This document shows positions 6,551 through 28,239 of a DNA stretch of 64,000 bases, piece by piece. The DNA lies in IMG/VR virus record IMGVR_UViG_3300045988_120991, positions 101,979 through 165,978 of that record. One strand, 5' to 3'. This stretch comes from a virus. The notes under the pieces were generated by a model that searched no databases, was not told the origin of the DNA, and worked only from the letters and a program-made list of their open reading frames with translations. A program made the translations under genes and the position numbers. Position 1 is the stretch's first letter; the number at the start of each line of letters is the position of its first letter.

Positions 6551-8029
6551 TTAATTCTCCTCCTCATTAATCTCTTCTTGTGCTTCTTCCATATCAGGAG
6601 TAGTTGCCTCAGCCTTTACTAGACCCTCAAGACACTTAAATGCAAAGTTCTTATGTTTATATGCGCAGAATTTAGGCTTATTCACAATACGAACTACTAC
6701 ACCCTCGCGTACATGAATCTTGCCAATAGGATCGGGGCCATCATAATATTGCTCTGCAATATTTTTAATCCATTCACCAGGGGTCCCTTCACGACAGACT
6801 CTCCAAGTGCCATGCTCGCCATAACAATCATAACCTTCTTCAAGACCCTCATCAGCGGGGATAAAACCTCTCCACAACATCGGGACACATTTACAACCCA
6901 TTTGCTCACAACGATAACGCATGAAGTCAGGAGAATACTCTACTACATCTCCGTCTTCATTTGTCATAGTCATACGATAAACATAAAAGTCAGACTGAGG
7001 AACTTCTCTTTCAGTGATACCAATACCTTCTTTGCCGTCTGGATTACAGCCATAAGAGAAAGTCGTAGTCTTACCATACTGCTTCACAAATTCCTTATCA
7101 TTGAGCTTCTTATTATCAGCGGTTGCCATAATAGGAGTGCTAGTATGGGTGAACCCAACTACCTCATAGTAGACCTCTTCACCCTTATGTAGTTTGCCCT
7201 CAAAGAACTTGGAGTGCTGTTCGCGGAACTCATTAGAGCCATAGTAGCCGCCATCAAAATTCTCAAGAACGGTACGACGAGTACCAGACACATAGCCCCA
7301 ATTATAAATAGGAGTTGCAGAAGAAAGTCCAAGATTCGCGAACTTCTGAGTTATAGCACCAACTTTATCACCAGACATTACCGCATCGAGAGCAGCTTGA
7401 TAGATACGGTTTGTACATCTGTAACCCTTAAATACAGGTAAATAGCCGGTGCGCTGAGAAGTACCATGCATCTTTAGAGTGATTTCAATCTGGTCTCCCG
7501 CCTGAAAAGCTCCAAGATTATAGGCTAGCTGTTCAGTATCAGCATGTTCAGTAAACAGAGGTGCGATAGGAACCTTCTTCTTACGAGTATGATTACCATT
7601 TGTAGCATGACCACTACGGGTATTTCTGCGAGGAATGTACTTAGCGCAAATCTCATGTCCATTGAATGTAGTAATAACATCTCCAACTTTTAGATTGGAT
7701 ACGTCACCAAAAGATTCTAAGCAAGCCAATGGTAGAAATAGACCATCTGACTTTTCACCACGAAGCCTAATAGAAGTTACATTGCGCTTGTCTGGGTCCA
7801 TATAACCGCCAATGTTATTACCATCTACATCCTTCTTACGAAGCAAATTATTAGTATCTGCAAACTCAACAGAAAGTTGACCATCCGTAGGGAAATATAC
7901 ACCAATCTGACCGTCTGTATATTCCATACTTACACAAACCGTATTGCCAAAACACTCACCAAGCTGTAATCTGTCTGCGTTAGGATGCTTACGCAGATTT
8001 TTAATTGTTGTTACATACGCATTATACAT
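6551..8029 (-). CDS. ATP-dependent RNA ligase with N-terminal tRNA-binding-type OB domain
   Basis: N-terminal KHPNADRLQLGE resembles the Trbp111/EMAP tRNA-binding OB fold. Nucleotidyltransferase motif I is LKMHGTS (compare KIHGTN of T4 Rnl2), motif IV is REGVVVRI and motif V is AYKHKNFAFK. Confidence 0.75.
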   Translation of the reverse strand: MYNAYVTTIKNLRKHPNADRLQLGECFGNTVCVSMEYTDGQIGVYFPTDGQLSVEFADTNNLLRKKDVDGNNIGGYMDPDKRNVTSIRLRGEKSDGLFLPLACLESFGDVSNLKVGDVITTFNGHEICAKYIPRRNTRSGHATNGNHTRKKKVPIAPLFTEHADTEQLAYNLGAFQAGDQIEITLKMHGTSQRTGYLPVFKGYRCTNRIYQAALDAVMSGDKVGAITQKFANLGLSSATPIYNWGYVSGTRRTVLENFDGGYYGSNEFREQHSKFFEGKLHKGEEVYYEVVGFTHTSTPIMATADNKKLNDKEFVKQYGKTTTFSYGCNPDGKEGIGITEREVPQSDFYVYRMTMTNEDGDVVEYSPDFMRYRCEQMGCKCVPMLWRGFIPADEGLEEGYDCYGEHGTWRVCREGTPGEWIKNIAEQYYDGPDPIGKIHVREGVVVRIVNKPKFCAYKHKNFAFKCLEGLVKAEATTPDMEEAQEEINEEEN

Positions 8030-8941: not shown

Positions 8942-9718
8942 TTATAGTTCATCGTCTTCTTCTGCAAGCTTCTTCTTAATAGCTTTAATTGCAACTTGTA
9001 CATCTGGACGAGTAATGTTCTCCTCCATCCAGACCACATAATCGTCACCAGATTTGAATAGGTCAATCAGCTTCTCGCCCTTATGCTTACCAAATGTTAG
9101 CACATACTCTTCTGGCTTAGATTCTACTCTAGGAGTTTCAATGTTCTCAAAATCCATAGTAAGAGTTTTGCGAGATGCAAGGTAGTCTGCAAGATGTACT
9201 AGCTCTTGATATGTGTCTTCTGGTTTCGGCAAACATTCTCCGGTTTTTCTATCCACATTCCATTGGCCCATATGCGATTCAATACAATGAGCAATTAGTT
9301 CAATCTCATCGTGATTTAGATACTTGCCATCATAACTACGAATAACTGCTGCCATTTGTAGAGGGTGGTCGAATTTAGTATACTTACTTCTTTCATAATC
9401 TGATTGGGACCCACTCTTACGGCCATCATGAATCAGTCCTGCCACACGTAGCAAGTCTCTTTCTCTACTAGGAATTATTTTGTTGTATTGTTCAAGTTCA
9501 AGAAAGAAATTTAGGAATCTTACAACTGCAATCTGATGACACATCAATCCAAGTTCTCCAAGTGAATAGGCCGGATGGTACTTTCCAGTAGACGATGCTC
9601 CAACATGCCATATATATTCTGGAAGGTTGTCTAATAACACAATTGCAAAATCTTTAATATCATCATTTTCAAATGTATTTAGTACTGGTTGTACTATATT
9701 TAGTCTTTCAGGCGTCAT
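8942..9718 (-). CDS. HD-domain phosphohydrolase with C-terminal DUF3820-like tail
   Basis: 258 aa with KYHPAYS...CHQ...LIHDGRK...HCIESH (H..HD..H). The C-terminal FGKHKGEKLIDL...YVVWM motif is seen in phage/ExoX-like tails. Confidence 0.7.
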   Translation of the reverse strand: MTPERLNIVQPVLNTFENDDIKDFAIVLLDNLPEYIWHVGASSTGKYHPAYSLGELGLMCHQIAVVRFLNFFLELEQYNKIIPSRERDLLRVAGLIHDGRKSGSQSDYERSKYTKFDHPLQMAAVIRSYDGKYLNHDEIELIAHCIESHMGQWNVDRKTGECLPKPEDTYQELVHLADYLASRKTLTMDFENIETPRVESKPEEYVLTFGKHKGEKLIDLFKSGDDYVVWMEENITRPDVQVAIKAIKKKLAEEDDEL

Positions 9719-12799: not shown

Positions 12800-14038
12800 T
12801 TACATATAAATTGGATGTAGTTCGCATAGTTGACGAGCTATATCGGAGATATATTTCTTATTGCCATCGAAGTCTTTGATGGCCAACGAAATAAGTCCCG
12901 CCACATTTCTTGCGTCAAACTTATCAAAGCCACGTGTAGTAATTGCGGGAGTCCCAATACGAAGACCACTAGTTACAAATGTGGATAGAGGGTCGTTAGG
13001 AATTGAATTTTTATTCGTTGTAATGTTTACACTATCGAGCTTCTCCTGTAATTCTTTGCCAGTAATTCCTGTGTCTCTAAGGTCTAGAATCATTAGATGA
13101 TTATCTGTTCCACCAGAAATAAGCTTAATGCCGTTTGTTTTAAATACACTTGCCATAGCCTTTGCATTATTAATAACATTATTCTGATATTCTGCAAATT
13201 CTGTCTTCAGTGCTTCACCAAAACATACTGCCTTTGCTGCAATTATATGTTCTAGTGGACCGCCCTGAGTACCAGGAAATACTGCCGAATCAATCTTCTT
13301 TGCAAGTTTACTCTTGCACAAAATAACTGCACCACGAGGGCCTCTCATGGATTTATGAGTCGTAAATGTGCAAACATCAGCATAAGGGACAGGACTTGGA
13401 TGTACACCTCCTGCTACAAGTCCAGCAATATGCGCCATGTCTACAAAGAGATAAGCGCCTACTTCATCTGCAATTTCACGGAACTTTGCAAAATCAATGA
13501 TACGCGGATATGCAGAAGCTCCTGCCAAAATCATCTTAGGCTTGTTATTTAGTGCAAGGTCCCTCACATTATCATAGTCAATAAAGCCATTTTCGCCTAC
13601 TCCATAACGAACTACGTTAAAGTACTTGCCAGAAATGTTGAATGGTGCTCCGTGACTGAGATGCCCACCAGCAGAAAGATCCATGGACAGAACGGTATCA
13701 CCAGGGGATAATAGTGCATAAAATACTGCCAAATTTGCGCTTGCTCCTGAATGCGGCTGCACGTTTGCATGTTCTGCTCCAAATAGCTTTTTACAACGTT
13801 CAATTGCAAGAAGTTCTACTTCATCAATATACTGACATCCACCATAGTATCTCGCATGAGGCTTTCCTTCTGCGTATTTATTGGTTAGAACAGATGACAT
13901 TGCGTCAAGAACTGCTGGAGACACAATGTTTTCTGATGCAATAAGTTCGATTGTACCACGCTGCCTGTTAAGTTCTTTCAAACAAATATCGTATACTTCT
14001 ACATCTTGCTTTTTTAGGTTGTCTAGCATTATATTCAC
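12800..14038 (-). CDS. glyA: serine hydroxymethyltransferase
   Basis: 412 aa. Family-wide similarity is evident, including [11 protein letters not shown] (PLP lysine), [10 protein letters not shown] and [10 protein letters not shown]. Confidence 0.9.
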
Positions 14039-14045
14039 TCCTTAC

Positions 14046-14074
14046 TTAAAAATAGGGGAGACTTTCGTCTCCCC
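14046..14074 (-). terminator. rho-independent terminator closing the tRNA array
   Basis: Minus strand reads GGGGAGAC-GAAA-GTCTCCCC followed by TATTTTTAAG, which runs into the glyA RBS. Confidence 0.75.
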
Positions 14075-14077
14075 TTA

Positions 14078-14153
14078 TGGAGCACGTGACGAGGCTTGAA
14101 CTCGCAACAGCCAGATTGGAAATCTGGAACTCTACCAATTGAGCTACACGTGC
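14078..14153 (-). tRNA. tRNA-Gly(UCC)
   Basis: Hand-folded cloverleaf: GCACGTG/CACGTGC acceptor, loop TTTCCAA, T-loop TTCAAGC, CCA encoded. Confidence 0.85.
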
Positions 14154-14158
14154 ATTTG

Positions 14159-14235
14159 TGGTACACCTTGAAGGACTCAAACCTTCGACCTTCTGATCCG
14201 TAGTCAGACGTTCTATTCAACTGAACTAAAGGTGC
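14159..14235 (-). tRNA. tRNA-Arg(ACG)
   Basis: Cloverleaf with TCTGA-CTACGGA-TCAGA anticodon arm, T-loop TTTGAGT, CCA encoded. Confidence 0.85.
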
Positions 14236-14240
14236 ATATA

Positions 14241-14315
14241 TGGTGCCCGTGGAGAGATTCGAACTCTCGACTCACGGCTTAAAAGGCCGTTACTCTACCA
14301 CTGAGTTACACGAGC
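14241..14315 (-). tRNA. tRNA-Lys(UUU)
   Basis: ACGGC-CTTTTAA-GCCGT anticodon arm, GAGAG-TTCGAAT-CTCTC T arm, CCA encoded. Confidence 0.9.
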
Positions 14316-14318
14316 ATA

Positions 14319-14395
14319 TGGTCGGAGTGCAGGGGCTTGAACCCTGGGCCTCTAGATCCCAAATCTAGCGCTCTACCAAACTGAGCTACACCCCG
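14319..14395 (-). tRNA. tRNA-Pro(UGG)
   Basis: CTAGA-TTTGGGA-TCTAG anticodon arm, CAGGG-TTCAAGC-CCCTG T arm, CCA encoded. Confidence 0.9.
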
Positions 14396-14400
14396 AAATG

Positions 14401-14477
14401 TGGCACCCCGTGTTGGACTCAAACCAACGACACATGGCTTAGAAGGCCATTGCTCTGTTCAACTGAGCTAACGGGGC
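14401..14477 (-). tRNA. tRNA-Arg(UCU)
   Basis: ATGGC-CTTCTAA-GCCAT anticodon arm, GTTGG-TTTGAGT-CCAAC T arm, CCA encoded. Confidence 0.9.
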
Positions 14478-14482
14478 ATATA

Positions 14483-14577
14483 TGGCGCCGAGGGTGGGAT
14501 TCGAACCCACGGGCCGAATATAAATCGGCACACAAGATTTCAAGTCTAGGCGCTTATGACCACTTGCGCACCTCGGC
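14483..14577 (-). tRNA. tRNA-Ser(UGA), class II
   Basis: Loop CTTGAAA, long variable arm GCCGA...TCGGC, GTGGG-TTCGAAT-CCCAC T arm, CCA encoded. One mismatch in the anticodon stem. Confidence 0.8.
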
Positions 14578-14690
14578 ATATTAACTTTGTAATCCCAAAC
14601 TCCTCCACACAGATTACTGGGCACCCCTTACCTCGAATGCTAGTTAGTAGCAACAAACGTTTGTGCCGTTTCCACAAATAAAGATACACC

Positions 14691-14885
14691 TCACTGCGTA
14701 TTAACCTCTGTATATTCAGTACTAGATAAGGTAATCATTCTTTCGCATCCGTCCTGTGGACAAAAAATATTTGCAACCCCAAGATTATTTATTCCGTCAG
14801 ACGGATTAAATGCAAATTCACAACCACAATAAGGGCAGATTGCCTTATAGGTCTTAACTTTGCCTCCCTTGATAATATACTTCAT
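14691..14885 (-). CDS. small zinc-ribbon protein embedded in the tRNA array
   Basis: 64 aa with CPYCGC...CPQDGC. GAGGTG RBS. Confidence 0.5.
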   Translation of the reverse strand: MKYIIKGGKVKTYKAICPYCGCEFAFNPSDGINNLGVANIFCPQDGCERMITLSSTEYTEVNTQ

Positions 14886-14896
14886 AATAACACCTC

Positions 14897-15016
14897 TTAA
14901 TTAAACTTGTTCAACTGCCGCTTAACTTTACGGATAAGGCCCTCGTTCATAGTCTCGCCTCGTGCCAAAAGCTTTGCTAGACGATTTTCATAATGTTCCT
15001 TAGTGCGAAAGTTCAT
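14897..15016 (-). CDS. small basic helical protein (39 aa) embedded in the tRNA array
   Basis: Hand-translated MNFRTKEHYENRLAKLLARGETMNEGLIRKVKRQLNKFN. Strong AGGAGG upstream. Confidence 0.35.
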   Translation of the reverse strand: MNFRTKEHYENRLAKLLARGETMNEGLIRKVKRQLNKFN

Positions 15017-15042
15017 AATATGTACCTCCTAAAATTTTTGTA

Positions 15043-15165
15043 TGGCAGGGGTAGTAGGGTTCGAACCTACGATGCGGGAGTCTGGTCAAGGTAGTTGGTA
15101 CTGCCCCAACTAAATTCACTTGAATACCTTGAAAGTCCCGTGCCTTACCACTTGGCTATACCCCT
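15043..15165 (-). tRNA. tRNA-Gln-like gene interrupted by a 49-nt insertion in the anticodon loop (UUG if CTTT+GAC are joined; UUC is the alternative)
   Basis: AGGGGTA/TACCCCT acceptor, GCC-AAGTGGTAA-GGC D arm, CGGGA...TCCCG anticodon stem enclosing 56 nt, GTAGG-TTCGAAC-CCTAC T arm, G73, CCA. Insertion at 15083-15131. Confidence 0.65.
15094..15110 (-). repeat. conserved insertion hairpin, copy 1 (GTTGG-GGCAGTA-CCAAC)
   Basis: The same 5-bp stem and 7-nt GGCAGNA loop recur in the insertions at 16662-16678 and 17532-17548. Confidence 0.7.
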
Positions 15166-15168
15166 ATA

Positions 15169-15243
15169 TGGTGGATCTGACGTGACTCGAACACGCAACT
15201 TCTTCCTTGCAAGGGAAGCTTTCTCCCATTGAAATACAGACCC
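15169..15243 (-). tRNA. tRNA-Cys(GCA)
   Basis: CTTCC-CTTGCAA-GGAAG anticodon arm, GCGTG-TTCGAGT-CACGT T arm, CCA encoded. Confidence 0.85.
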
Positions 15244-15405
15244 AGATTTTATGAGATAGCTACACTATGTATACCTAATGTAGCTATTAGGTTTTCTAAC
15301 TCCTCACCTCAAACCATTTTTATCTGTCTCTCCTCTTAGCCAATCAGATTTGAGTGACTTGAACGGACCGCCGTCCTCACATTGATAAAATAGTAAAATC
15401 AACAA
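15244..15405 (-). other. 162-nt non-coding spacer with strong hairpin inside the tRNA array
   Basis: Minus strand contains ATAGCTACA-N14-TGTAGCTAT (9-bp stem) and GGTTT...AAACC. I found no tRNA fold and no ORF. Confidence 0.3.
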
Positions 15406-15496
15406 TGGCGCGATAGGAAGGCTTCGAACCTTCGCACGGCTTTCACCGCCTAGCAGATTAGCAATCTACCCTCTTCAACCACTTGAGTACTACCGC
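15406..15496 (-). tRNA. tRNA-Ser(GCU), class II
   Basis: GTAGA-TTGCTAA-TCTGC anticodon arm, long variable arm GGCGGTGAAAGCCGT, CCA encoded. Confidence 0.85.
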
Positions 15497-15499
15497 ATA

Positions 15500-15703
15500 T
15501 TAATCTAATGTTCTTCCAGTTGCTAATTCAAAAATTAAATTATCAACACAGGGAATGTGCATTGCCTCTATCTCATATTGAGTACGATGTTCAATGTCAT
15601 TAATATAGATAGGACAATCTTTACATTCTACATTTTCACAAAAACGAACAGCTTTTTCTACTATTTTAGAATTCGCAAATTTTATATATTCTTCCCAACG
15701 CAT
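15500..15703 (-). CDS. small Cys-containing protein embedded in the tRNA array
   Basis: Start moved to MRWEEYIKF, with GGAGG 5 nt upstream. 67 aa. Confidence 0.5.
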   Translation of the reverse strand: MRWEEYIKFANSKIVEKAVRFCENVECKDCPIYINDIEHRTQYEIEAMHIPCVDNLIFELATGRTLD

Positions 15704-15723
15704 AAAATCCTCCATAAAACGAG

Positions 15724-15752
15724 CAGTTTATACAGTGATACTCAGCACTATC
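15724..15752 (-). repeat. 29-nt direct repeat, copy A (contains hairpin ATAGTG-N8-CACTGT)
   Basis: 25 of 29 nt identical to 16117-16145. Both copies sit just downstream (minus sense) of a tRNA 3' end. Confidence 0.6.
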
Positions 15753-15775
15753 CCACGGTCCCAATCGAGCTTTTC

Positions 15776-15850
15776 TGGAGCTGATGGAGAATTTCGAAAT
15801 CTCGACCTAGTGATTACAAATCACTCGCTCTGCCTCTGAGCTACACCAGC
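15776..15850 (-). tRNA. tRNA-Thr(UGU)
   Basis: AGTGA-TTTGTAA-TCACT anticodon arm, CCA encoded. One T-stem mismatch. Confidence 0.8.
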
Positions 15851-15956
15851 AGATCTCCTCGTCTTTCCGAGGTGTCAATCGCACTTTTACATTAATAATC
15901 TTAAATTATTCTTTAATAGGAAGATGACGCCAATCTTGTGTGATTACCTTTTATGT

Positions 15957-16025
15957 GAGGTCTTAATTGGAATCGAACCAACACCTGCCCCACCACGGGG
16001 CCGATCTACCATTGAACTATAAGAC
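15957..16025 (-). tRNA. atypical tRNA-like gene with a shortened (15-nt) anticodon arm; identity undetermined
   Basis: GGTCTTA/TAAGACC acceptor and GTTGG-TTCGATT-CCAAT T arm. The anticodon region is GCCCC-GTGGT-GGGGC (5-nt loop, or 4-bp stem with loop CGTGGTG). No CCA encoded. Confidence 0.4.
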
Positions 16026-16027
16026 CT

Positions 16028-16105
16028 ATGGTGACGCTACCGGGGATCGAACCCGGACACTCCACGGTGAAAGCGTGGTAACTCTACCAATTCGTCCATA
16101 GCGCC
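16028..16105 (-). tRNA. tRNA-Glu(UUC)
   Basis: CCACG-CTTTCAC-CGTGG anticodon arm, CCGGG-TTCGATC-CCCGG T arm, CCA encoded. Confidence 0.8.
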
Positions 16106-16116
16106 ATATCTTTGGA

Positions 16117-16145
16117 CAGTTTATACAGTGATGTCCAGCACTGTC
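16117..16145 (-). repeat. 29-nt direct repeat, copy B (hairpin ACAGTG-N8-CACTGT)
   Basis: See 15724-15752. Confidence 0.6.
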
Positions 16146-16156
16146 ACTTTTGGGAG

Positions 16157-16241
16157 TGGTAGCGGTGGTGGGCTACGATCCCACACGTCATAAGACATTG
16201 GTTTTTGAGACCAACCTGTCTGCCTGTTCCAGCACACCGCC
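16157..16241 (-). tRNA. tRNA-Leu(CAA), class II, atypical T-loop
   Basis: TTGGT-CTCAAAA-ACCAA anticodon arm, long variable arm. The T arm is GTGGG-ATCGTAG-CCCAC, with A where T54 normally sits. CCA encoded. Confidence 0.75.
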
Positions 16242-16448
16242 ATATTAAGCACAACCTACATAGAGCTAGCCTCGCTCACACTTGCTTTCCCGAACACTTC
16301 CCACCCTCGGTTATGCTTTGTTATTGTTTATCCTATTTTCACAATAACATATGCCTCGTTCTCTTCTCGTTACTATGGGTTAGTAACTTAGTAGCTTTTC
16401 TCTTGTGGATAGCACTTATCAATACACCGAGAACCCCAATAGGCGGCA
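16242..16448 (-). ncRNA. 207-nt structured non-coding spacer (candidate ncRNA)
   Basis: No credible ORF. Minus strand contains CTCGGT...ACCGAG enclosing about 110 nt, GTTACTA-ACCCA-TAGTAAC and GTTATTGT-N13-ACAATAAC hairpins. Confidence 0.3.
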
Positions 16449-16524
16449 TGGTTGCGAAGTTCTGGAATCGAACCAGATTCTGATAGCTTATGAGACTACC
16501 TGAGATTCCTACCTCCCACTCGCA
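16449..16524 (-). tRNA. tRNA with CAU anticodon (Met, or Ile2 if lysidine-modified)
   Basis: GTAGT-CTCATAA-GCTAT anticodon arm, TCTGG-TTCGATT-CCAGA T arm, CCA encoded. The acceptor has one mismatch. Confidence 0.7.
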
Positions 16525-16608
16525 TTATCTAGCAGACTACAATGCCGTCTGCTAGGGCATTAGAAAGAGGTGATGCCTATAACCAAGGCTCTGAACTTGT
16601 CATTCAGA

Positions 16609-16758
16609 TGGTCCCCCACCGGTGGATTGAACACCGAACCTCCCGATTATTTGTCACTACAGTAAGTCCTGCCCTTACATTACTGATTATCCTTCAGTGG
16701 TGTTGCTTTTACACTATGTAGTGAAGTCGGGTGCTCTAGCCAGTTGAGCTAGCAGGGG
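16609..16758 (-). tRNA. class I tRNA interrupted by an approx. 73-nt insertion in the anticodon loop (Ile-UAU-like if CTT+ATAA are joined; Arg-UCU or UCA readings also possible)
   Basis: CCCCTGC/GTGGGGG acceptor, GCTC-AACTGGCTA-GAGC D arm, CCCGA...TCGGG stem enclosing 80 nt, AGGTT variable loop, CGGTG-TTCAATC-CACCG T arm, A73, CCA. Confidence 0.6.
16662..16678 (-). repeat. conserved insertion hairpin, copy 2 (GTAAG-GGCAGGA-CTTAC)
   Basis: Shares stem ends and the GGCAGNA loop with copies 1 and 3. Confidence 0.7.
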
Positions 16759-17056
16759 ACATATAATCCGGCTTTTACGGTACGCCCAATAAGATGGACA
16801 CGCTTGAATTTCACAATTGCCATCAAAGTGCCTGATGACTAACACCCAATATGAAGCCTTGATATCATTGCTTCTAAGTCGTTATTGGGAACAACAGATG
16901 GTAATGATAGCAAGCGAAGCCGCGCATGACTCCATTTCACAGTGCTTCATCAACTACTTTTGGCATTTCTAATTATTATCGGTGCAGGTAGCTAATCCTG
17001 TAACGGCTTATCCTCATTGATTATCTCCTATGAAATTTGCACTACTTACTATCATT
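16759..17056 (-). ncRNA. 298-nt non-coding spacer (candidate structured RNA)
   Basis: No ORF above about 22 codons and no tRNA fold found by eye. Several 5-6-bp hairpins (e.g. CATCA-N7-TGATG). Confidence 0.25.
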
Positions 17057-17141
17057 TGGTGGGCCAGGGTGGTGCCGACCCACCTACTCCCGAAGGAAAC
17101 GGATTTACAGTCCGCCGCAGTTGCCGATTTGCTACTGACCC
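17057..17141 (-). tRNA. tRNA-Tyr(GUA), class II, atypical T-loop
   Basis: GCGGA-CTGTAAA-TCCGT anticodon arm, variable arm TTCCTTCGGGAGTA. The T arm is GGTGG-GTCGGCA-CCACC (G54/G58). CCA encoded. Confidence 0.75.
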
Positions 17142-17468
17142 ATATAGCTATACTTTTTAACTTGGGCAAGAAGTATAGTGAAACTTGCCAGACGATCAAA
17201 CCTTCATCCACATGGGAGCCACACGCAGTTCGTCCGTAGTATGTGGTTTTAATGTTTGAGTTGGTTCGCTACACCAACTCCGACTGACTTGCAATCGCAC
17301 TATTTTCTCTACAATTGGCCTTTGCACTACATTCGCACCCTAGTGCATTAACCTTCCTATATAGTGAACTTCCCTTTCATTTTCTGCTTCGAGAACCAAT
17401 CGCTTGTTCTCTACTCCAAGACTTTGGACGGGAGATGGGGCGGTAGTTTAATGACTTGCCAAGGTCGA
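17142..17468 (-). ncRNA. 327-nt structured non-coding element closed by a terminal helix (candidate large ncRNA)
   Basis: Minus-strand 5' CTTGGCAAG can pair with 3' CTTGCCCAAG. Internal hairpins are GAGAAC-N9-GTTCTC, GCACTA-N11-TAGTGC and GAGTTGG-N9-CCAACTC. No ORF. Confidence 0.35.
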
Positions 17469-17601
17469 TGGTGCGGGTAGCGAGACTTGAACTCGCACGG
17501 ATATTTCACCGAGGGATTTTTGGTGAGTATTGTAGGTGCTGCCCCTACCAAAGCACTGGCTATACCCAAGTCCCTTGTGTCTGCCATTCCACCATACCCG
17601 C
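17469..17601 (-). tRNA. tRNA-Leu (class II) interrupted by a 47-nt insertion in the anticodon loop (UAA if CTT+AAAA are joined)
   Basis: GCGGGTA/TACCCGC acceptor, Leu-type D arm GTG-GAATGGCAGA-CAC, AGGGA...TCCCT stem enclosing 54 nt, long variable arm, GCGAG-TTCAAGT-CTCGC T arm, A73, CCA. Confidence 0.65.
17532..17548 (-). repeat. conserved insertion hairpin, copy 3 (GTAGG-GGCAGCA-CCTAC)
   Basis: Shares stem ends and the GGCAGNA loop with copies 1 and 2. Confidence 0.7.
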
Positions 17602-17649
17602 ATATCACAGGGCAGCTTTAAGGTGATGCCCAGCACCATACTTAACTCC

Positions 17650-19203
17650 TTAAGAGTTCTTCAATGCGGCTTCCACCGCATCATATCTATCACTCATAAG
17701 CGTCTCAACGAGGCACTCATAAGGATTGGTCTTACCACTCATAACCATCTTGCAGACATTAGTGGAGAATCCACTAACAAGAGCAACACCAAGGTCATTC
17801 TCCTTTATAGGAATAGTTCCAGTGCGAGAATTTACATTCCAGAAGACTAGTCTAGGCATCTGATACCCAGCATCCTCGAAACGCTTCTTGATTACCTTAA
17901 AAAGTTTTGCATTAGGTCTATTAAGACCATATCTAGCGGAACCGTCACAAGTTGCACAAGAGTCAAACTCCATATCTGAAATAATCAGTACGTTCTTAGG
18001 CATATCCTCTTGCTTCATATGACCATTCACCGCAGTAGTAAGAATCAAATCAAACACCTTTTCAATGTTTGTATTTGAACACTCGTCATGACCATATGCA
18101 ACACGTAACTTATCTCTCAGAGAATCGCACTGACTAAAATCAACCAACTGAGGTCTGCTAGAGAAAGTAATGTATTTATCCTTAAAGTCTCCAGAAGAAT
18201 GTTCTGCAAAGTAAATCGCAAGTGCATTTGCAACTTCAAGTGCAGTAACACGGCTACTTCCACCAACGTTGCAACACATAGAACCAGAGCCATCTGCAAC
18301 TACAATGGTGTTTCCACATTCATTTACTGTGTTAGGCAAAGCTTTCCAAAGAGATTCAAGAGTTGCATCGTATTTGCCGATACCGCCGTACCATCCAGTT
18401 GCACTAGAATACTTATGCACAATGTCGTGAGGGAACAAAGTTCCAGCATTAATCTTAGTTTCGCCCTTTTCAAGCTTACTCAGATACTCTCTGCGACGCT
18501 CCTCATCATTACGAAGGAAAGCTCCGTTATAAATGAGATTTGCACGAGAAGGAACTGTTTCGTACTTAATGTCTCCCCATTTCTTTGCAGACATCTTGCC
18601 CTCTACAATATCAATGTAAGAACGCAGAGAAGAAAGTGTCTTACGATACTCACGCTCAGTCATACCAAGATTCTTGCAAATGTATCTTGCATCCATCTTA
18701 GTTTTTGCAGAAGAAGCATTCACAGAAGGAAGCCACTTGGCAAGAAGAGATACGGGCTTATTATCAGCCATATTTGCAATATCATCAGTGAGCTGCTTTT
18801 TGATGATGTCAAAAATAATACCATCTACGTCTGTACCAAACAGACACCACAGGTCATCATAACGACCATACTCACTCACCAGAGGAGCAAGATGCTTAAC
18901 AATATCAACGTCATCCTTTGCCATATTCTTAATAATCGCTCTGAACAAACGTCTTTCACCAAGACCACCACGAACATCTCTGGCGAAGAACAGCCAACGT
19001 AGAGCCATCATTTTATCTTCAAAATAAGCCTTAGTAAACTTATTATAGATATTCTCCTCACTCATACCACGCATAGAAGAAACTGCAAAGTTTAGGTCAA
19101 CCAGTTCCTTACCAGAGGTACGATACCCAAGAGCGCCATTCTCAGTTACTGAATAGTTGAAATCCTCGTTCAGAGTATTCTTTACTGCATTCATAAAAGA
19201 CAT
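17650..19203 (-). CDS. Ro60/TROVE-like vWA protein (DUF2828-type architecture)
   Basis: Start moved to MSFMNAVKN, with GGAGG upstream. N-terminal VTENGALGYRTSGKELVDLNF. C-terminal vWA domain with MIDAS VADGSGSM, and a tail FWNVNSRTGTIPI...VSGFS that parallels the Ro60 C-terminus. Confidence 0.65.
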   Translation of the reverse strand: MSFMNAVKNTLNEDFNYSVTENGALGYRTSGKELVDLNFAVSSMRGMSEENIYNKFTKAYFEDKMMALRWLFFARDVRGGLGERRLFRAIIKNMAKDDVDIVKHLAPLVSEYGRYDDLWCLFGTDVDGIIFDIIKKQLTDDIANMADNKPVSLLAKWLPSVNASSAKTKMDARYICKNLGMTEREYRKTLSSLRSYIDIVEGKMSAKKWGDIKYETVPSRANLIYNGAFLRNDEERRREYLSKLEKGETKINAGTLFPHDIVHKYSSATGWYGGIGKYDATLESLWKALPNTVNECGNTIVVADGSGSMCCNVGGSSRVTALEVANALAIYFAEHSSGDFKDKYITFSSRPQLVDFSQCDSLRDKLRVAYGHDECSNTNIEKVFDLILTTAVNGHMKQEDMPKNVLIISDMEFDSCATCDGSARYGLNRPNAKLFKVIKKRFEDAGYQMPRLVFWNVNSRTGTIPIKENDLGVALVSGFSTNVCKMVMSGKTNPYECLVETLMSDRYDAVEAALKNS

Positions 19204-19239
19204 TTTCTTTCCTCCATTTTTTTGATTTATTTCTAAATC

Positions 19240-19442
19240 CCAAGACACATTATTATGTACAATCTCCACATTAAAAATTTGCTGTTAGTGTCTTTGGAGT
19301 TTATTCAACGAGACGCCAAAATAAAACCATTAGTAAAAATATCATTTTCATCTTTTTAAATTGCTGTAAGCGTCTCTATGTAAGGCAAGGCACCATCAAT
19401 ATAAATCCATATCATATTATGTAAAGTTGCTGTTAGTGCCTT
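19240..19442 (-). repeat. three tandem imperfect hairpin units, each carrying a CTAACAGCAA-N-TTT box, in the leader of the Ro-like gene
   Basis: Minus-strand stems are AAGGCAC/GTGCCTT, GAGACGC/GCGTCTC and CCAAAGACAC/GTGTCTTGG. Each is followed on its 5' arm by (C)T(A/T)ACAGCAA-N-TTT. A fourth box lies inside the tRNA-Asn insertion. Confidence 0.6.
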
Positions 19443-19448
19443 TTTAAA

Positions 19449-19567
19449 GTCTCCTGACAGGACTTGAACCTGCGACCTCTGGTTTAACAGACCAATTAGA
19501 AACTTGCTGTTTAAGGCTTTTACAAGTCTCGTTATTAAGCGCTCTATCCGACTGAGCTACAGGAGAC
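19449..19567 (-). tRNA. tRNA-Asn(GUU)-like gene with a 44-nt insertion at the top of the anticodon stem; encoded G-1 opposite C73; no CCA
   Basis: Removing 19495-19538 gives TCTCCTG-TA-GCTC-AGTCGGATA-GAGC-G-CTGGT-CTGTTAA-ACCAG-AGGTC-GCAGG-TTCAAGT-CCTGT-CAGGAGA-C, a canonical cloverleaf. Confidence 0.6.
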
Positions 19568-19604
19568 ATATTTATGAGCAGTTTAACGAGGTGCTCGGCT
19601 CACT

Positions 19605-19649
19605 TTAATTTTGTACTGTGATTATACCACAGATTACTTATTTTGTCAA
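19605..19649 (-). promoter_or_regulatory. sigma-70-type promoter plus conserved leader, driving the tRNA-Asn-like / Ro-like unit
   Basis: Minus strand reads TTGACA-N17-TATAAT-c-ACAGTACAAAATTAA, with a TGTGG extended -10 context. Confidence 0.7.
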
Positions 19650-19763
19650 GTACTTTTTTACTTTTTATTCCAGAGAAGCCATCCACAAGCAACTCCGAAC
19701 AAGAAACATACAATTTCCTTCATCTTTACTTCTTCCTTATTATACCATATTCGGCATCATTTG

Positions 19764-20114
19764 TCAAGCATTTTCTCGATTTTTTCTTGTGCAATTTACT
19801 CGATTGCAGAACTCAAACATTGCTGCATTAAGATCCTCTGCAAACTCATCACACTTGGTATCCAGTGCTGCATAGTACCGATCCAGAAGCTTCGCCTTTG
19901 CCATCTTCATACCAATAGCAGGATCATACTCATCATCAGGATGACACACGACAACCGCACGATAAGAACTACTCATCAGGTACTTACTAGGATCGAAGCA
20001 CAGAGATTTGGTCTGTCCCATAATCTTTGCAATCTTATGGATAGCATCATACTTCGTGTTCTCAAGAACCGCAATGGTCTTGTTCTGCTCCGGCACATGT
20101 ACAAACTTAATCAT
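19764..20114 (-). CDS. hypothetical protein
   Basis: ORF track, 116 aa, behind two tandem consensus promoters. Confidence 0.6.
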   Translation of the reverse strand: MIKFVHVPEQNKTIAVLENTKYDAIHKIAKIMGQTKSLCFDPSKYLMSSSYRAVVVCHPDDEYDPAIGMKMAKAKLLDRYYAALDTKCDEFAEDLNAAMFEFCNRVNCTRKNRENA

Positions 20115-20228: not shown

Positions 20229-20257
20229 ATTATAGCGCATTAATTTTGTTTTGTCAA
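20229..20257 (-). promoter_or_regulatory. second, upstream sigma-70-type promoter
   Basis: Minus strand reads TTGACA-N17-TATAAT. The -35 overlaps the stop codon of the preceding gene. Confidence 0.55.
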
Positions 20258-21402
20258 GTATCTTTTTTAAATAATTTTCTAGTTTCTTCATAAGACAGGT
20301 ACTTAATATTAATGCCCGTCAAATTCAGCAGTTTTTCATTTTTAAACTCGTTAACATGAGTTACTGCAAGAGATACCTCATAGGCAATATCCCCAATGTC
20401 TTCCTTAATTCTTTGCATAAGCTCACCAACATCAAGATGCCCATACCGAATGGACCCCTGATACTGGTTTGTAATATTGGTCTTGTCATCAATGTTAATG
20501 TTAATCTCCGACTTATCACATTCACATTCAAAGTCACCAGCACCATGCTTCGTCATATATGTTCTAGTAACATAGCACACTTCAACGTTTGCATTAGGTA
20601 AATACTTTTCAATGATTATATGAGGATTTGCAATGCCAGTATTGCTAGGAGTCGTATTATCATAATACTGAACATGACGCTGATCCAACAGCAATCCTTG
20701 CCCATTTTCAAATACGACATTATCAAACTTTTGCAAAATCCTACTATAATCAAATACTACATGAGAATGCATAAACTGCGCATCGTCAATAAAGTTATAA
20801 ATCAAATTGTCGGATGCCAAAATATCTTCCCATTCCTGCAAAACTTCAGGACTAGCCTTTAGCAGCCTCTTAGACGTATATTCATCCCTGACACGCTTAA
20901 GAAATGCGACCTGCTCGTCCTTAGTCATATTATAGAACTGCTGGAAAGACGGGCTTGTAGTATTCCTATATCTAAGAACAGTTTCCCAAATACCCATACC
21001 ACAAGAGCCATACCGATTTTTGCCACGACTATCCTCAAGGATTTGATTTGTAATCATATCATATGGAGTAGACCATCTGCAATTCCAATGACTATAAACA
21101 CGAGGTGCATAGCCTAATGCCTTCAATTCCTCGTACTCTTTTCTAAAAGTCATAGGGTTTAGAATATACTCTTCCCCAAAATAAGTATCTGCTCCCGCAA
21201 AGGTTCCTGAACCAAAATGGTGGAACACATGTCTAATGCCATCTGGAGTAACTACAGTATGTCCTCTTTGTGCGCCGCCATTGCATAGAGCAACGATACA
21301 AGATTCATTCCGCTTACTTGCTTCGGCACAAAAGTAATCGGTCATCAGACCTTTTCCCTCGTCGCCAAAGTTGCTACCAATTACTACCTTAACATTAGAC
21401 AT
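20254..21402 (-). CDS. adenylosuccinate synthetase family protein (short form; PurA/PurZ-like)
   Basis: Start moved to MSNVKVVIGSNFGDEGKGLMTDYF (AdSS P-loop GDEGKG). Also NGGAQRGHTV (compare GGHNAGHT), FENGQGLLLD and TRTYMTKHGAGDF (compare TRVGxGPF). Confidence 0.7.
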   Translation of the reverse strand: MSNVKVVIGSNFGDEGKGLMTDYFCAEASKRNESCIVALCNGGAQRGHTVVTPDGIRHVFHHFGSGTFAGADTYFGEEYILNPMTFRKEYEELKALGYAPRVYSHWNCRWSTPYDMITNQILEDSRGKNRYGSCGMGIWETVLRYRNTTSPSFQQFYNMTKDEQVAFLKRVRDEYTSKRLLKASPEVLQEWEDILASDNLIYNFIDDAQFMHSHVVFDYSRILQKFDNVVFENGQGLLLDQRHVQYYDNTTPSNTGIANPHIIIEKYLPNANVEVCYVTRTYMTKHGAGDFECECDKSEININIDDKTNITNQYQGSIRYGHLDVGELMQRIKEDIGDIAYEVSLAVTHVNEFKNEKLLNLTGINIKYLSYEETRKLFKKDT

Positions 21403-21416
21403 GTGTTTATCCTTTC

Positions 21417-22271
21417 TTACCAAGAAATACCTTCACTAGATGTTGCTACATTGCCACCAGAAAACGCATTGGTGACAATATCAATGATGTCATCTGCAAT
21501 CTTATCAATAGACGTATCCTTCAGATGGTTCTCGTCCAGAAGCAGCCCAAAAGTCCTATGAACGGCCTCATGATAACGACCATAACCATGCTTAACATAC
21601 AGATGATAAATGTCAAACTTCTCAGACGCATTAGCGTAAAGCTGTGCCGTTTCAACATCGCTCTGTAGATTATCACCAGTTACTGCGGATAGAGCCTTCT
21701 TCGGCAGATATGGATTCATAGGCTCGTCACCCATAGTGATAATGACACCCTTCTGTCCACGATTCCAGCAATCTAGCTTCGTGTGATTAAGACCGAAATA
21801 CCATGCGGCGCTATAAGACTCATAATCATTGCCTCCACCACCGCCCTCAAAATAAATCTTATCAAGCTGTTCTGCGATGCGGATATCAGACTCAAACTGT
21901 GATGCCTGAATAGGAGCGCAATCGTAAGCAAGATCCCCAATGCCCATAACCATGAACTCTACGTCTGCGATATTCTCGTATAGCTTAGTCATTACTACAT
22001 TGATCTGCTTTGCAACTTCCATAGCCGCCTTGCCCATGCTACCAGTTACATCGAGTGCCAGAATAACAGGCTTGGTATTAGGATGTTCCACAGAGTCAAC
22101 ACACTCACGCATTACATTCTTAGGATTAAGGTCTGCTACTAGCATTTTAGATTTAAAATTGTCCTGCACATTAGAGGACATTCCAGTGACTACACCATCC
22201 ATTGATACGCTGTACCCCTTGGTAGTCGCATAAGTGGTAAAAGCATTTTTAGTCCAACTGCCACCGCCCAT
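21417..22271 (-). CDS. von Willebrand factor A (vWA) domain protein
   Basis: 284 aa. MIDAS-like ILALDVTGSMG, followed by MVMGIGD and IITMGDE motifs. Confidence 0.7.
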   Translation of the reverse strand: MGGGSWTKNAFTTYATTKGYSVSMDGVVTGMSSNVQDNFKSKMLVADLNPKNVMRECVDSVEHPNTKPVILALDVTGSMGKAAMEVAKQINVVMTKLYENIADVEFMVMGIGDLAYDCAPIQASQFESDIRIAEQLDKIYFEGGGGGNDYESYSAAWYFGLNHTKLDCWNRGQKGVIITMGDEPMNPYLPKKALSAVTGDNLQSDVETAQLYANASEKFDIYHLYVKHGYGRYHEAVHRTFGLLLDENHLKDTSIDKIADDIIDIVTNAFSGGNVATSSEGISW

Positions 22272-23196: not shown

Positions 23197-26100
23197 TTAT
23201 ATAATTATATTTACAAGATAATTCGTCAACCAAGGTTCTTGCTCTGGGAGTTTAACCCATTGACCATTCTCGTCCTTACGGCTCTTATTTCTCATTTCAG
23301 AATGGAACTGTAATATACAATCTTTATTAAAAGGATTCTTCTCATAAGCCTTTTTCTGTACCTTATAGACTACAGTTTGCCCATCCCAAAGTTGATAAAC
23401 CGTAATACGAGGACTCCAATTTGTATTCAAATCCATAACATAACCAATATTCTTTTTATCTGGAATTACCAATGAACAGAATCCAAAAAGGTCACATTGC
23501 CATTTTATTTTAGACTGAATAGGAACTTCTACTTGTGGAATCATAGAACATAATTCTTTAAGTAGTCCATCTGGATCGGTAATTCTATATTGTTTCTCTG
23601 TAGCCGTTGTGTATTTGTCAAGAAGTTCTTGTGGAAGTCTACATTTGTCCTTCTTCAAAATTTTCTTTCCAGCAAACTGGTCATATACTTCTACAAGGTG
23701 CAAAAGAGTTCCCGAAGGTCCAAAGTCAGAAAAATAGTCAATCTTAATCAATGTATCAATCTTTGCAGAGTTTAAACTAGGAATCTTTTTCATAGCAGTA
23801 AGTAACTCAATGAAACTATCAAACTTCTGTTTCTGTGAAAGTTCATACAAATCATCCGCACAAGCTTGGCTTAGTCCTTTAATTGACAATAGAGACGGGT
23901 TAATTACATGCTTCTCCTTGTCTGCAACAAACTTTCTGTTATCAACACCAAATTTATACTCACCCTCTTTAATGCCAAAAGCTACTTGCATCTCCTGTTT
24001 AAGAGCTTGAACTTTATCCTTCTTGCCCTTATCAGAAAACACTTGTAGAAGGACTTCATAAAATTCATATTGATAATGAGCCTTTAACCATGCACAATAC
24101 AGACTATCAAGAGCCATACAATAAGCATGAGCACTATTGAAGCCATATCCGCAGGAATCATCAATAATCTGCCATACCTTTGCACTCATTTCTTCCGCTT
24201 CTGCATCTGGAATATGGTCATCCTCCATAATACGCTTCTTGAATCCTTCAATGAATCTAGATTTCAAAGGACGAACCTTTTCTGGATGCTTCTTTGCAAT
24301 AGCTTTAATAATTCCATAGCATTCATCAAGGGGGAATCCAGCATAGTTTAATGTATTCATACTCTGCTCTTGATAAAGAATATAAGAATATGGGAATTGT
24401 GGTGTTTGAAGAATCTTATCAAAAGCCTTAATTCCATACTCAAAATGCTCACGTGATTCAAACTTAGAATACATAGACTTAAAAGCAGGACGAATTGCAG
24501 CAATCCAAGCGGCTAACTCTGAAATATTCTGAGGCTTATACTTTTTGAGCTTTCTCATTGCAGATTCTTTCTCACACTGATTAACTCCAATAGTATATCC
24601 ATTGGCATAAATATCCCATACTTTCTTGTCACCATCAACAAGGTCACTAATCTCGCTAGCCGTATGTACTGGAATACCAATACGCTTATAAATCATATCA
24701 ATGAGCAAAACAACATCTACTTTAAGCAAGTCATTTTTAAGGAACTTGTACTTTTCTGCAATTGCTCCATCAATAACTGTAGTAATATATTCACGCTTTG
24801 TGCTTTCACTCTTGCACTTGATAAGACCAATTTCTTCTCTGATGCTACCCTGGTACAATAAGTAGGCACAAGGGGCCTTGTTTTTGTGGTCAATTACTCC
24901 CCAATATTTCTTGCTCTTATCAATATATGGTTTATACTGCTCATCAATAAAGTCATAAATATTAATATCATCCTTGTCGTCATCGTCGGCATATTTTACT
25001 GCTTCTTCATACTTATCAATCTGCTTAGAAATTTCATTTGCAATATCATAATCTAAGTTAGCTGCTCTTGCGTACAACTTGAATGCTGACTTCTTCTTTA
25101 GTGTACCAAAAGCAACCATAGGATATGCATGATCTTCTCCAAGAATTTCTTTCTGAGCTTCTGCAAAAGGTTCTACCGTGCCAAGGTTCATATCCAAATC
25201 TGGTAATGACTTGGTTTCCAAAATTCTCGTCTTACTAATAAAACGCTCTGGATACAGTTTAATTGGAGATGTAAATCTATCAACCTTAGAAAATCCACAT
25301 AGGGTATTGGTAAAATAACCAACGGCACTACCTCTGCCAGTAGTTGTGATAAGCCCACCCTTTTCAATGCCACGCTTAATAATAGCATAATCCATCAAAG
25401 GATAGTCCACCATACCAGTTTCTTTATATACTGATACTTCTTGTTTAACTCCATCAAAGTATTCTTTATATTTATCCTTTGGAACATGTTTCACATAGTC
25501 TTTAAAAAGCCTAGAAATAAGCTTACTATATATTTTATTTCGTTCCTCCTGTGTTTTATCTGGATACAATGTAGGTAACTTAATGTCTGTAGTAAATACT
25601 GGCACATTGTCATAATCATCAAAAGTTAGCAGAATATCAGTATTGTCCATAGCTTTTTGCACAGTTTCTGCATCAAACACACCTTGCTCTACAAATCTTT
25701 GACGAACAGTATCATCGTCTGGATAATCCATATACCAACCAACTTCATTGTCATCAAACTGAATATTTCGCCCAGCTAGGATATCATCTCTTTCTACCGA
25801 TTGCTCTGGATAAATATAATGGCTATCAAGTCCAACTATCATTGGAATGTTATACTTCTCAGACAATTCTTTAATATGCTTGTTTAGAATAATTTGTCTT
25901 GAAGTATTGTGATTTTGAATTTCTAACATGAAGTTGTCTTTAAAATAATCATGTAGATGTTTTACAATTTCGTCACTGTCTTCATATTTCCAAAAGGCAA
26001 TACATGCAGTTGTGATAAAAACATCATCAGCAGGAAGTGAAAAAATTAAATCAAGGTCAATTCTTGGTTTATAATAATATCCTGTTTCGTTAGCATCAGA

Positions 26101-26479: not shown

Positions 26480-26521
26480 TTAATTTTGTACTGTTATATC
26501 ATAATTCTTCTTCTTTGTCAA
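26480..26521 (-). promoter_or_regulatory. sigma-70-type promoter plus conserved leader inside the 3' end of the RecJ-like gene
   Basis: Minus strand reads TTGACA-N17-TATAAC-AGTACAAAATTAA-AGTAGGAGG. Confidence 0.6.
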
Positions 26522-28235: not shown

Positions 28236-28239
28236 TCCT

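Follow-up and report, generated by a model that had tools for sequence, protein, structure and literature searches.

To our knowledge, the introns established to date in the tRNA genes of bacteria are all of group I. Such introns, for example those of cyanobacterial tRNA-Leu(UAA) and Azoarcus tRNA-Ile, exceed 200 nucleotides (nt), have a conserved catalytic core and are self-splicing; in archaea and eukarya, short introns that do not splice themselves are removed from the anticodon loop by proteins, with endonucleolytic cuts made by EndA or TSEN and ligation by RtcB or Trl1. Here we describe an interrupted tRNA-Gln(UUG) gene in 64,000 nt of viral DNA (positions 101,979 to 165,978 of IMG/VR record IMGVR_UViG_3300045988_120991). 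This whole stretch, referred to below as the window, covers 64 kb of a genome of about 150-170 kb, and coordinates are counted from its first base. The 49 nt that interrupt the anticodon loop form a true intervening sequence whose structure is of a new type, namely a tRNA mimic lodged within the loop of another tRNA, and on present evidence the insert lies outside the known kinds of tRNA intron. A full-text literature search, in which subscription journals are thinly covered, returned no tRNA-like or minihelix introns and no nested tRNAs in phage or bacterial tRNA genes.

The insert and its relatives share the anticodon loop with the group I introns, including the 34/35 position of tRNA-Leu(UAA), and like them occur as filled and empty alleles; however, they measure only 47-93 nt and have a tRNA fold. 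With the protein-spliced introns of archaea and eukarya they have in common their short length, the absence of self-splicing, the anticodon-loop location, a removal that has to go by way of cutting and ligation, and a heal-and-seal gene set near by. Unlike those introns they contain no bulge-helix-bulge (BHB) motif, lie at sites from 32/33 to 36/37 rather than at 37/38 and are themselves NCCA-ended minihelices; the host is bacterial, the predicted cutters are tRNA end-processing enzymes, and a splicing endonuclease was not found among the approximately 50 window open reading frames (ORFs) scanned. Split and permuted tRNA genes (Nanoarchaeum, Caldivirga, Cyanidioschyzon) are likewise non-collinear or interrupted and need cutting and joining, but depend on a BHB and a splicing endonuclease; in the phage gene the two halves follow one another in collinear order, with a tRNA mimic between them. 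The tRNA-like signals cut by RNase P and RNase Z (MALAT1/mascRNA, mitochondrial tRNA punctuation, plant mitochondrial t-elements and minihelix substrates) are similar in that a mimic marks the ends of the flanking RNA; these known signals release or terminate flanking RNAs without rejoining them, and none lies inside a tRNA anticodon loop. In the repair system of phage T4, Pnk and Rnl1 also bring a phage kinase-phosphatase and RNA ligase to tRNA halves parted at the anticodon loop, but there the break is host damage and is sealed by Rnl1, whereas here it would be a programmed maturation step sealed by an Rnl5-like ligase. The tRNAs with U34 are the class typically attacked by anticodon nucleases, and the interrupted tRNAs all have U34.

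The tRNA-Gln gene lies within a minus-strand cluster of 17 tRNA genes (14078-17601) and comprises the following elements.

15043-15165, minus strand: interrupted tRNA-Gln(UUG) gene, 123 nt, or 74 nt without the insert (Rfam, ARAGORN and syntenic alignment)
15132-15165, minus strand: 5' exon, with the acceptor 5' strand, D arm, anticodon-stem 5' strand and C32 U33 U34 U35
15043-15082, minus strand: 3' exon, with G36 A37 C38, anticodon-stem 3' strand and variable loop, then T arm, acceptor 3' strand, G73 and CCA
15165-15159 and 15053-15047, minus strand: acceptor stem AGGGGTA/TACCCCT
15140-15136 and 15079-15075, minus strand: anticodon stem CGGGA/TCCCG, enclosing 56 nt
15046-15043, minus strand: G73 and encoded CCA

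Read along the minus strand from 15165 to 15043, the 5' half is AGGGGTA-TA-GCC-AAGTGGTAA-GGC-A-CGGGA-CTTT and the 3' half, resuming after the 49 nt, is GAC-TCCCG-CATC-GTAGG-TTCGAAC-CCTAC-TACCCCT-G-CCA. A preliminary description of this DNA had listed paired arms throughout on the minus strand and had named the locus a tRNA-Gln with a 49-nt interruption. The listed elements are all present and accurate in every detail, and the identification is borne out by the Rfam score and by syntenic uninterrupted orthologs. The outer gene scores 56.9 bits against the Rfam tRNA model RF00005 (gathering score 29; E = 1.3e-9 over the whole window), with all 71 model positions aligned and a 51-nt insertion placed in the anticodon loop; in this covariance-model search no Rfam family besides tRNA matched at E <= 1 in the region (14000-20000; 15000-15200). 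ARAGORN in its default bacterial mode misses the gene; with introns allowed it recovers the gene and an intron of 49 nt, but chooses a junction that gives the anticodon UUC and hence a tRNA-Glu.

The junction is settled by comparison with related loci, for which we fetched 65 viral contigs with 8-kb flanks by means of the cluster-encoded DUF2828/DUF7788 protein (17650-19269). The Gln site is filled in the window and in two of these loci, L012 and L005, and empty in two others, L002 and L007, where the gene reads GGGACTTT followed directly by GACTCCC; the 49 nt are precisely absent and the loop is CUUUGAC. The flanks of filled and empty alleles are alike, with a tRNA-Ala gene upstream and the same small ORF downstream. 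Since these syntenic orthologs fix the mature product, which would be tRNA-Gln(UUG), the UUC reading is wrong: the CTTT+GAC junction suggested in the preliminary description is the one they match, and its alternative UUC junction, also the choice of ARAGORN, is contradicted by them. A separate tRNA-Glu(UUC) gene is present at 16029-16105. Spliced in silico, the 74-nt sequence is called tRNA-Gln(ttg) by ARAGORN and is identical to the uninterrupted ortholog (L002 11675-11748) at 70 of 74 positions.

The 49 nt themselves form a compact tRNA-like minihelix, with the following parts.

15083-15131, minus strand: 49-nt insert, a tRNA-like minihelix between tRNA positions 35/36
15131-15125 and 15093-15087, minus strand: acceptor-like stem CAAGGTA/TACCTTG, 7 base pairs (bp)
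15124-15115, minus strand: mini D-like hairpin TTC-AAGT-GAA
15114-15111, minus strand: linker TTTA
15110-15094, minus strand: T-like arm GTTGG-GGCAGTA-CCAAC, 5 bp and a 7-nt loop
15086, minus strand: discriminator A
15085-15083, minus strand: CCA, ending on the last base of the insert, at the 3' junction

The 5' end of the insert is the first base of its 7-bp acceptor-like stem and the 3' end is the final A of CCA. No nucleotide separates the T-like hairpin from TACCTTG, so the insert has the parts of a tRNA-like minihelix: a 7-bp stem coaxial with a 5-bp hairpin with a 7-nt loop, followed by N73 and CCA. The loop, GGCAGUA, is not a canonical T loop (U54, U55, C56, R57, A58). This nested architecture is obtained in minimum free energy (MFE) folds of the isolated insert and of the 123-nt precursor, in which an outer cloverleaf carries the inner minihelix (-41 kcal/mol, z -1.8). 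The pairing TCAAGGTA/TACCTTGA that had been pointed out in the preliminary description is present, with the acceptor-like stem of the insert as its inner 7 bp. The likeness to archaeal and eukaryal pre-tRNAs drawn from that helix did not hold, as there is no BHB, the site is 35/36 rather than 37/38, and the helix belongs, as acceptor stem, to a tRNA-like minihelix whose A-CCA end coincides with the 3' junction. This 12-bp stack of acceptor stem and T arm with an NCCA end is the portion of a tRNA that has been reported to be enough for RNase P, RNase Z and the CCA-adding enzyme to recognise their substrate, and it has been described as the minimal substrate of RNase P.

Two further tRNA genes of the window cluster are interrupted in the same manner.

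16609-16758, minus strand: interrupted tRNA-Ile(UAU) gene (ARAGORN with introns allowed, re-parsed)
16651-16723, minus strand: tRNA-Ile insert, 73 nt, a full-size tRNA-like element at 34/35, with T-like loop GGCAGGA, ending A-CAA
17469-17601, minus strand: interrupted tRNA-Leu(UAA) gene with class II body (Rfam tRNA, 42.5 bits)
17521-17567, minus strand: tRNA-Leu insert, 47-nt minihelix between positions 34/35

The 73-nt Ile insert folds as a complete inner cloverleaf (MFE). In all three window inserts the 5-bp hairpin is closed by a GGCAG-N-A loop, and the hairpin stems show compensatory changes (GTTGG/CCAAC, GTAAG/CTTAC and GTAGG/CCTAC). The cluster contains no other gene for Gln-UUG, Ile-UAU or Leu-UAA; in the codon usage of the phage, CAA makes up 56% of Gln, UUA 17% of Leu and AUA 13% of Ile codons. 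The default mode of ARAGORN misses three of the 17 cluster tRNAs.

To search for the architecture in the related loci we used a scanner that demands a 7-nt strand pairing at 6/7 positions or more with the 7 nt preceding N-CCA or N-CAA, a perfect hairpin of 5 bp and 7 nt immediately before the 3' strand, and a flanking perfect 5-bp stem enclosing, apart from the insert, a total of 7 nt with U second; finally, ARAGORN must call the insert-free sequence a tRNA with the same anticodon. The window and the 65 related loci (1.14 Mb) yielded 47 occurrences in 23 sources, amounting to 29 unique inserts, while reversed and shuffled versions of the same 1.14 Mb gave zero matches each and other viral loci (0.63 Mb) also gave none. 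The architecture is thus beyond chance: the window alone has two further examples and the 1.14 Mb as a whole has 47, with controls at zero. A first pattern run against the viral collection (AGTG...GGGGCAGNACC, 14 specified bases) brought up mostly chance matches, with five real ones among at least 120 loci; a longer pattern found 54 stretches in viral contigs, and 18 inserts were confirmed by the scanner in the newly fetched loci. The same longer pattern found 31 stretches in a set of one genome for each of 185,579 prokaryotic species, of which none passed the scanner; two matches in Oscillospirales were coding or unrelated sequence by eye. GenBank phages held no near match to the tRNA cluster and none to the inserts. 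After these scans the family stands at 38 unique inserts of 47-93 nt, from several metagenomes.

All 38 inserts begin at their 5' end with the 7-bp stem and close with the 5-bp/7-nt hairpin, the 7-nt 3' strand, N and the tail, such that the final 28 nt are constant in geometry while the interior takes up 12-58 nt. The tail is CCA in 35 and CAA in the remaining 3, and the discriminator is A in 29. The interrupted genes encode Gln(UUG), Leu(UAA), Ile(UAU), Lys(UUU), Thr(UGU) and Glu(UUC) tRNAs, and the insertion sites are 32/33, 34/35, 35/36 and 36/37. Deletion from insert position +1 through the last A restores a C-U-N-N-N-A-N loop in every case. At position +1, 37 of the 38 inserts have G or C and, except at the 32/33 sites, the preceding nucleotide is U, as it also is before the ordinary tRNAs of the cluster. 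The U at -1, the G or C at +1, the 7+5 bp stack and the NCCA end are tRNA end-processing signals.

Covariation supports the fold. In the ungapped ends of 24 distinct insert sequences, standard pairs fill 98.6% of the cells of the 12 pairs, against 38-46% in slid registers. The value of 98.6% is partly built in, because the scanner demands pairing; the variety of pair types is not. Both sides change in 11 of the 12 pairs, and the covariation score is 1.109 as observed vs 0.255 when shuffled. The short inserts have in addition a covarying mini D-like hairpin of 2-4 bp, whose tetraloop tracks the T-like loop: yAGU goes with GGCAGYA in 14 of 15 cases and CAGA or CAAA with GTYATCA in 6 of 6, as would be expected if a contact resembling that between D loop and T loop were maintained. 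Across the family only C56, A57 and the closing G53-C61 pair of the T-like loop are conserved, and relatives with TTCRANY loops exist. As a selection independent of structure we took the 121 unique intron calls of ARAGORN, which fall into 31 of the insert type, 83 of a second, unrelated type (described below) and 7 left over, two of the latter being mismatch variants of the insert type.

Five inserts are called as stand-alone tRNAs, two of them with a CUA anticodon, so the family extends from whole tRNAs in nested position down to the smallest minihelices. One of the five, at L016 4024-4094, is a tRNA-Asn(GUU) with a score of 57 bits and lies inside a tRNA-Lys(UUU) (L016 3990-4141). Stand-alone degenerate minihelices with the same loops and NCCA tail were absent outside tRNA anticodon loops in the 1.14 Mb. 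Complete tRNA genes nested at the same position, such as are extant in relatives, are the probable ancestors of the minimal inserts. Two other nested arrangements were noted: at L005 10133-10286 a tRNA with the CUA anticodon of amber suppressors sits inside a tRNA-Ile(UAU), and at L189 3366-3442 a 77-nt tRNA-like insert sits inside a tRNA-Glu(UUC).

The inserts also appear to be mobile. Between the window and L005 the sole difference in the Gln insert is a compensatory exchange of an A-T for a G-C pair (CAGGGTA/TACCCTG), and the empty Leu allele in L005 and L007 matches the window gene, once its exons are joined, at 86 of 86 positions. The inserts are not flanked by a target-site duplication, and the same tRNA species can have different insert subtypes at different loop positions. 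Presence and absence among close relatives, together with these differing subtypes and positions, point to mobility. Phages whose DUF2828 protein is 94-97% identical to that of the window differ in the presence of inserts.

From these observations we conclude that the tRNA-like intervening sequence is almost certainly real and precisely bounded, and that it is probably removed at the RNA level. The window encodes the following RNA-repair-type genes, some of which may bear on how removal would proceed.

6551-8029, minus strand: ATP-dependent RNA ligase-like protein with N-terminal OB fold and nucleotidyltransferase domain, Rnl5/DraRnl-like, candidate exon sealer
5427-6302, minus strand: Pnkp-like P-loop kinase fused to an HD phosphohydrolase (Pfam AAA_33 and HD), candidate end healer
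2088-2636 and 47322-48038, minus strand: metallophosphoesterases
963-1796, minus strand: Thg1-like 3'-5' nucleotidyltransferase of the tRNA 5'-end repair family (Pfam Thg1, E = 2.1e-26), part of the same RNA-repair neighbourhood

The ligase-like, kinase-HD, metallophosphoesterase (2088-2636) and Thg1-like genes are on the same strand as the interrupted gene, at a distance of 5-14 kb. The ligase-like protein has weak matches, under cutoffs, to the Pfam domains PHA02142 OB and RNA_ligase, and matches TIGR02306 RNA_lig_DRB0094 at E = 1.3e-13 (50.5 bits vs a cutoff of 151); in the PDB it finds the Naegleria RNA ligase NgrRnl (E = 2e-3) and T4 Rnl2 (E = 0.06), and its Bacillus phage homologs are annotated as RNA ligase. 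The kinase-HD protein matches the Pnkp1 kinase in the PDB (E = 2e-7) and TIGR04075 bacter_Pnkp (E = 2e-15, under the curated cutoff), while its HD region resembles CCA-adding enzymes (TIGR02692, E = 1.8e-8, also under the curated cutoff). RNA-repair gene sets of this kind are known in large phages (PMC7824862).

In the mechanism that we propose, the precursor would fold as a tRNA within a tRNA. Host RNase P would cut at insert position +1, leaving a 5' exon with a 3'-OH and setting the 5' splice site, and a second endonuclease, measuring from the same minihelix, would cut directly after CCA; an RNase Z of the after-CCA type, or another phage or host enzyme, is a candidate for this 3' cut. The exon halves would remain base-paired as a nicked tRNA, and the ligase encoded at 6551-8029 would seal the nick to give a product reading GGGACUUU joined to GACUCCC, the kinase-HD protein (5427-6302) first healing the ends if they were 5'-OH or cyclic phosphate. 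The existence of three CAA variants indicates that the position of the cut rather than the CCA sequence is conserved. We lean slightly towards this full scheme of RNase P, 3' endonuclease and phage repair ligase. In its broadest form it would amount to a third route of tRNA splicing, found in bacteriophages, in which tRNA-mimic introns descended from nested tRNA genes, and mobile between tRNA genes and between phages, are excised by the universal machinery of tRNA end maturation, with RNase P at the 5' end and a ruler-type endonuclease after CCA at the 3' end, and the exons rejoined by the repair ligase of the phage, with some introns yielding a second functional tRNA, including one of the CUA suppressor type; on this wider proposition we find the arguments evenly balanced.

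Several points weigh against the proposed mechanism. Excision and ligation are steps that we infer in their entirety, and the 3' cut is the weakest of the model: no RNase Z, EndA, PIN or HARP-type domain was detected by Pfam among the roughly 50 window ORFs. Recognition of the elbow by RNase P is uncertain, because the GGCAGYA and GTCATCA loops have no canonical U54 and A58. As regards sealing, all family matches of the ligase are weak or under curated cutoffs, and enzymes of the Rnl5 and Rnl2 types prefer nicks in duplex RNA, T4 Rnl1 being the one that prefers anticodon-loop nicks. Most RNase Z enzymes, moreover, are inhibited by CCA, the Thermotoga type being one that cuts after it (PMC3161902). 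The kinase-phosphatase fits cleavage by RNase P and RNase Z no better than cleavage that leaves 5'-OH and cyclic-phosphate ends. Finally, Bacillus phages with the ligase and the DUF2828 gene (FADO, PBC2, Skywalker) show no insert in the regions fetched, so the repair genes are not specific to the insert.

Among the other explanations, a true intron could be cut at both ends by a dedicated phage endonuclease that has escaped recognition and that binds the minihelix, the kinase-HD protein healing and the ligase sealing in the manner of yeast heal-and-seal splicing or of T4 PNK/Rnl1 repair, with no part for RNase P or RNase Z. The window does encode a complete healing and sealing set, comprising the Pnkp-like kinase-HD protein, the two metallophosphoesterases and the ligase, for which the products of RNase P and RNase Z would have no need as far as healing is concerned; many ORFs around the tRNA cluster belong to no recognisable family, and an enzyme known to cut after CCA was not identified in the window scans. 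We nevertheless regard a dedicated endonuclease as rather unlikely, given that the scanned window ORFs offered no candidate nuclease, that the conserved features of the inserts are tRNA end-processing signals, and that those inserts which are complete tRNAs need RNase P in any case.

A lower standing attaches to the idea of nested genes that are never rejoined, in which the inner RNA is the useful product, as a tRNA or as a minihelix acting perhaps as decoy or regulator, and the outer halves are by-products or a nicked tRNA held together non-covalently. That full tRNAs, with anticodon loops of normal form, occur among the inner elements, and that the minihelix has retained its CCA and an elbow-like loop pairing and could have a function of its own, speaks in its favour. 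It is made improbable by the outer exons, which are perfectly tRNA-like and whose 7-nt loop is restored at four insertion sites, by the identity of the Leu exons to the intact gene of sister phages at 86 of 86 positions, and by the fact that the interrupted genes are the only ones in the cluster for their anticodons. Anticodon nucleases kill precisely because a nick in the anticodon loop leaves a tRNA unable to decode.

That the insert is a small selfish element in a dead tRNA pseudogene, with no splicing at all, we hold to be very improbable. The presence/absence polymorphism between very close relatives, and the mobility implied by differing subtypes at differing loop positions of one tRNA species, would suit such an element; but inserts and exons are conserved together across phages whose DUF2828 proteins are about 60-75% identical, three helices are maintained by compensatory changes, and the same insert occurs in contigs from several metagenomes. 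Three of the 17 cluster tRNAs are hit, each interruption leaving an anticodon without a gene.

An intron or ribozyme of a known type is scarcely credible, even though the anticodon loop is a location common to such introns and the cyanobacterial group I intron occupies position 34/35 of tRNA-Leu(UAA) as well: 49 nt is far below group I length, as the preliminary description had already remarked, and Rfam Intron_gpI is not matched; there is no 3-4-3 BHB, the 5' junction lying at the base of a bulge-free 7-bp helix and the 3' junction 4 nt beyond it, and the splice positions vary without ever being 37/38; an EndA-like protein was not found among the scanned ORFs, and the host is bacterial as judged by class II tRNA-Tyr and tRNA-Leu genes and Bacillus-phage-like proteins; and no small self-cleaving ribozyme (hammerhead, twister, pistol, hatchet, HDV-like) is matched in Rfam in 14000-20000 at E <= 1, or in 15000-15200.

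If the interrupted genes are spliced as we propose, tRNA introns of the bacterial world would not be limited to self-splicing group I introns, and a working splicing pathway could be assembled from RNase P and a 3' tRNA endonuclease, which are present in every cell, plus a repair ligase, a circumstance that would bear on the origin of protein-dependent tRNA splicing. The RNA ligases and polynucleotide kinases of phages, until now regarded as a defence against anticodon nucleases of the host, would gain a programmed substrate. As tRNA finders in bacterial mode miss these genes, phage tRNA repertoires, arguments from codon usage and inventories of suppressor tRNAs are incomplete. The natural arrangement of a tRNA within a tRNA also resembles engineered arrays, where guide RNAs are placed between tRNAs that direct their processing, and could serve for RNA co-expression.

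The second type among the ARAGORN intron calls belongs to a separate RNA family, which accompanies the protein by which the related loci were collected.

19448-19567, minus strand: second tRNA-like RNA, of a family distinct from the inserts
17650-19269, minus strand: DUF2828+DUF7788 protein, embedded in the tRNA cluster

Copies of this RNA number 119 in 50 of the 65 loci, with 1-4 in tandem per locus; all are on the strand of the DUF2828 gene and most lie about 0.1-2 kb upstream of it. The acceptor, D and T arms covary, and the anticodon arm is replaced by a covarying hairpin of 6-7 bp followed by a near-invariant ACAGCAA. The family looks like a tRNA-like partner RNA of the DUF2828 protein and not like an interrupted tRNA, and it may be a Y-RNA-like partner of that protein; it has no match to YrlA in Rfam. 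The DUF2828 protein is conserved in 710 GenBank phage records, some of which label it an RNA-binding protein. In the C-terminal half there is a DxSxS motif (VVADGSGSM) resembling the site at which vWA domains bind metal, an arrangement reminiscent of Ro60; in the PDB neither the single sequence nor a 13-sequence profile gave a link to Ro60/TROVE.

Class II tRNA-Tyr and tRNA-Leu genes and the Bacillus-phage-like proteins indicate a bacterial host, and the nearest isolates are large Bacillus siphophages with 39-48% protein identity. Within the tRNA cluster, a second tRNA-Pro(UGG) copy (15957-16026, minus strand) is 70 nt long and, unlike the other cluster tRNAs, has no encoded CCA; it may be degenerate. 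Small ORFs of 39-71 amino acids lie between the tRNA genes (14691-14885, 14897-15016 and 15500-15715, minus strand), two of them with paired-cysteine, zinc-ribbon-like motifs, and the one directly downstream of the tRNA-Gln gene is kept in relatives. Further along the window, a GIY-YIG/NUMOD homing-endonuclease-like ORF (28240-29529, minus strand) overlaps the end of a RecJ-like gene (26499-28292), and an HNH/AP2-like ORF is present at 35228-35845. An adenylosuccinate-synthetase-like, possibly PurZ-like, gene (20254-21423) and an HD-domain protein (8942-9718) occur near a DNA polymerase of the PolIII-alpha type (23197-26463; all on the minus strand), with SHMT and a class V aminotransferase also close by; this neighbourhood hints at a genome with a modified base, possibly 2-aminoadenine. 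Two adjacent tyrosine-recombinase-like genes, MrpR-like and of the phage integrase family (42784-43689 and 43735-44712, minus strand), sit in what is otherwise a replication-module context.

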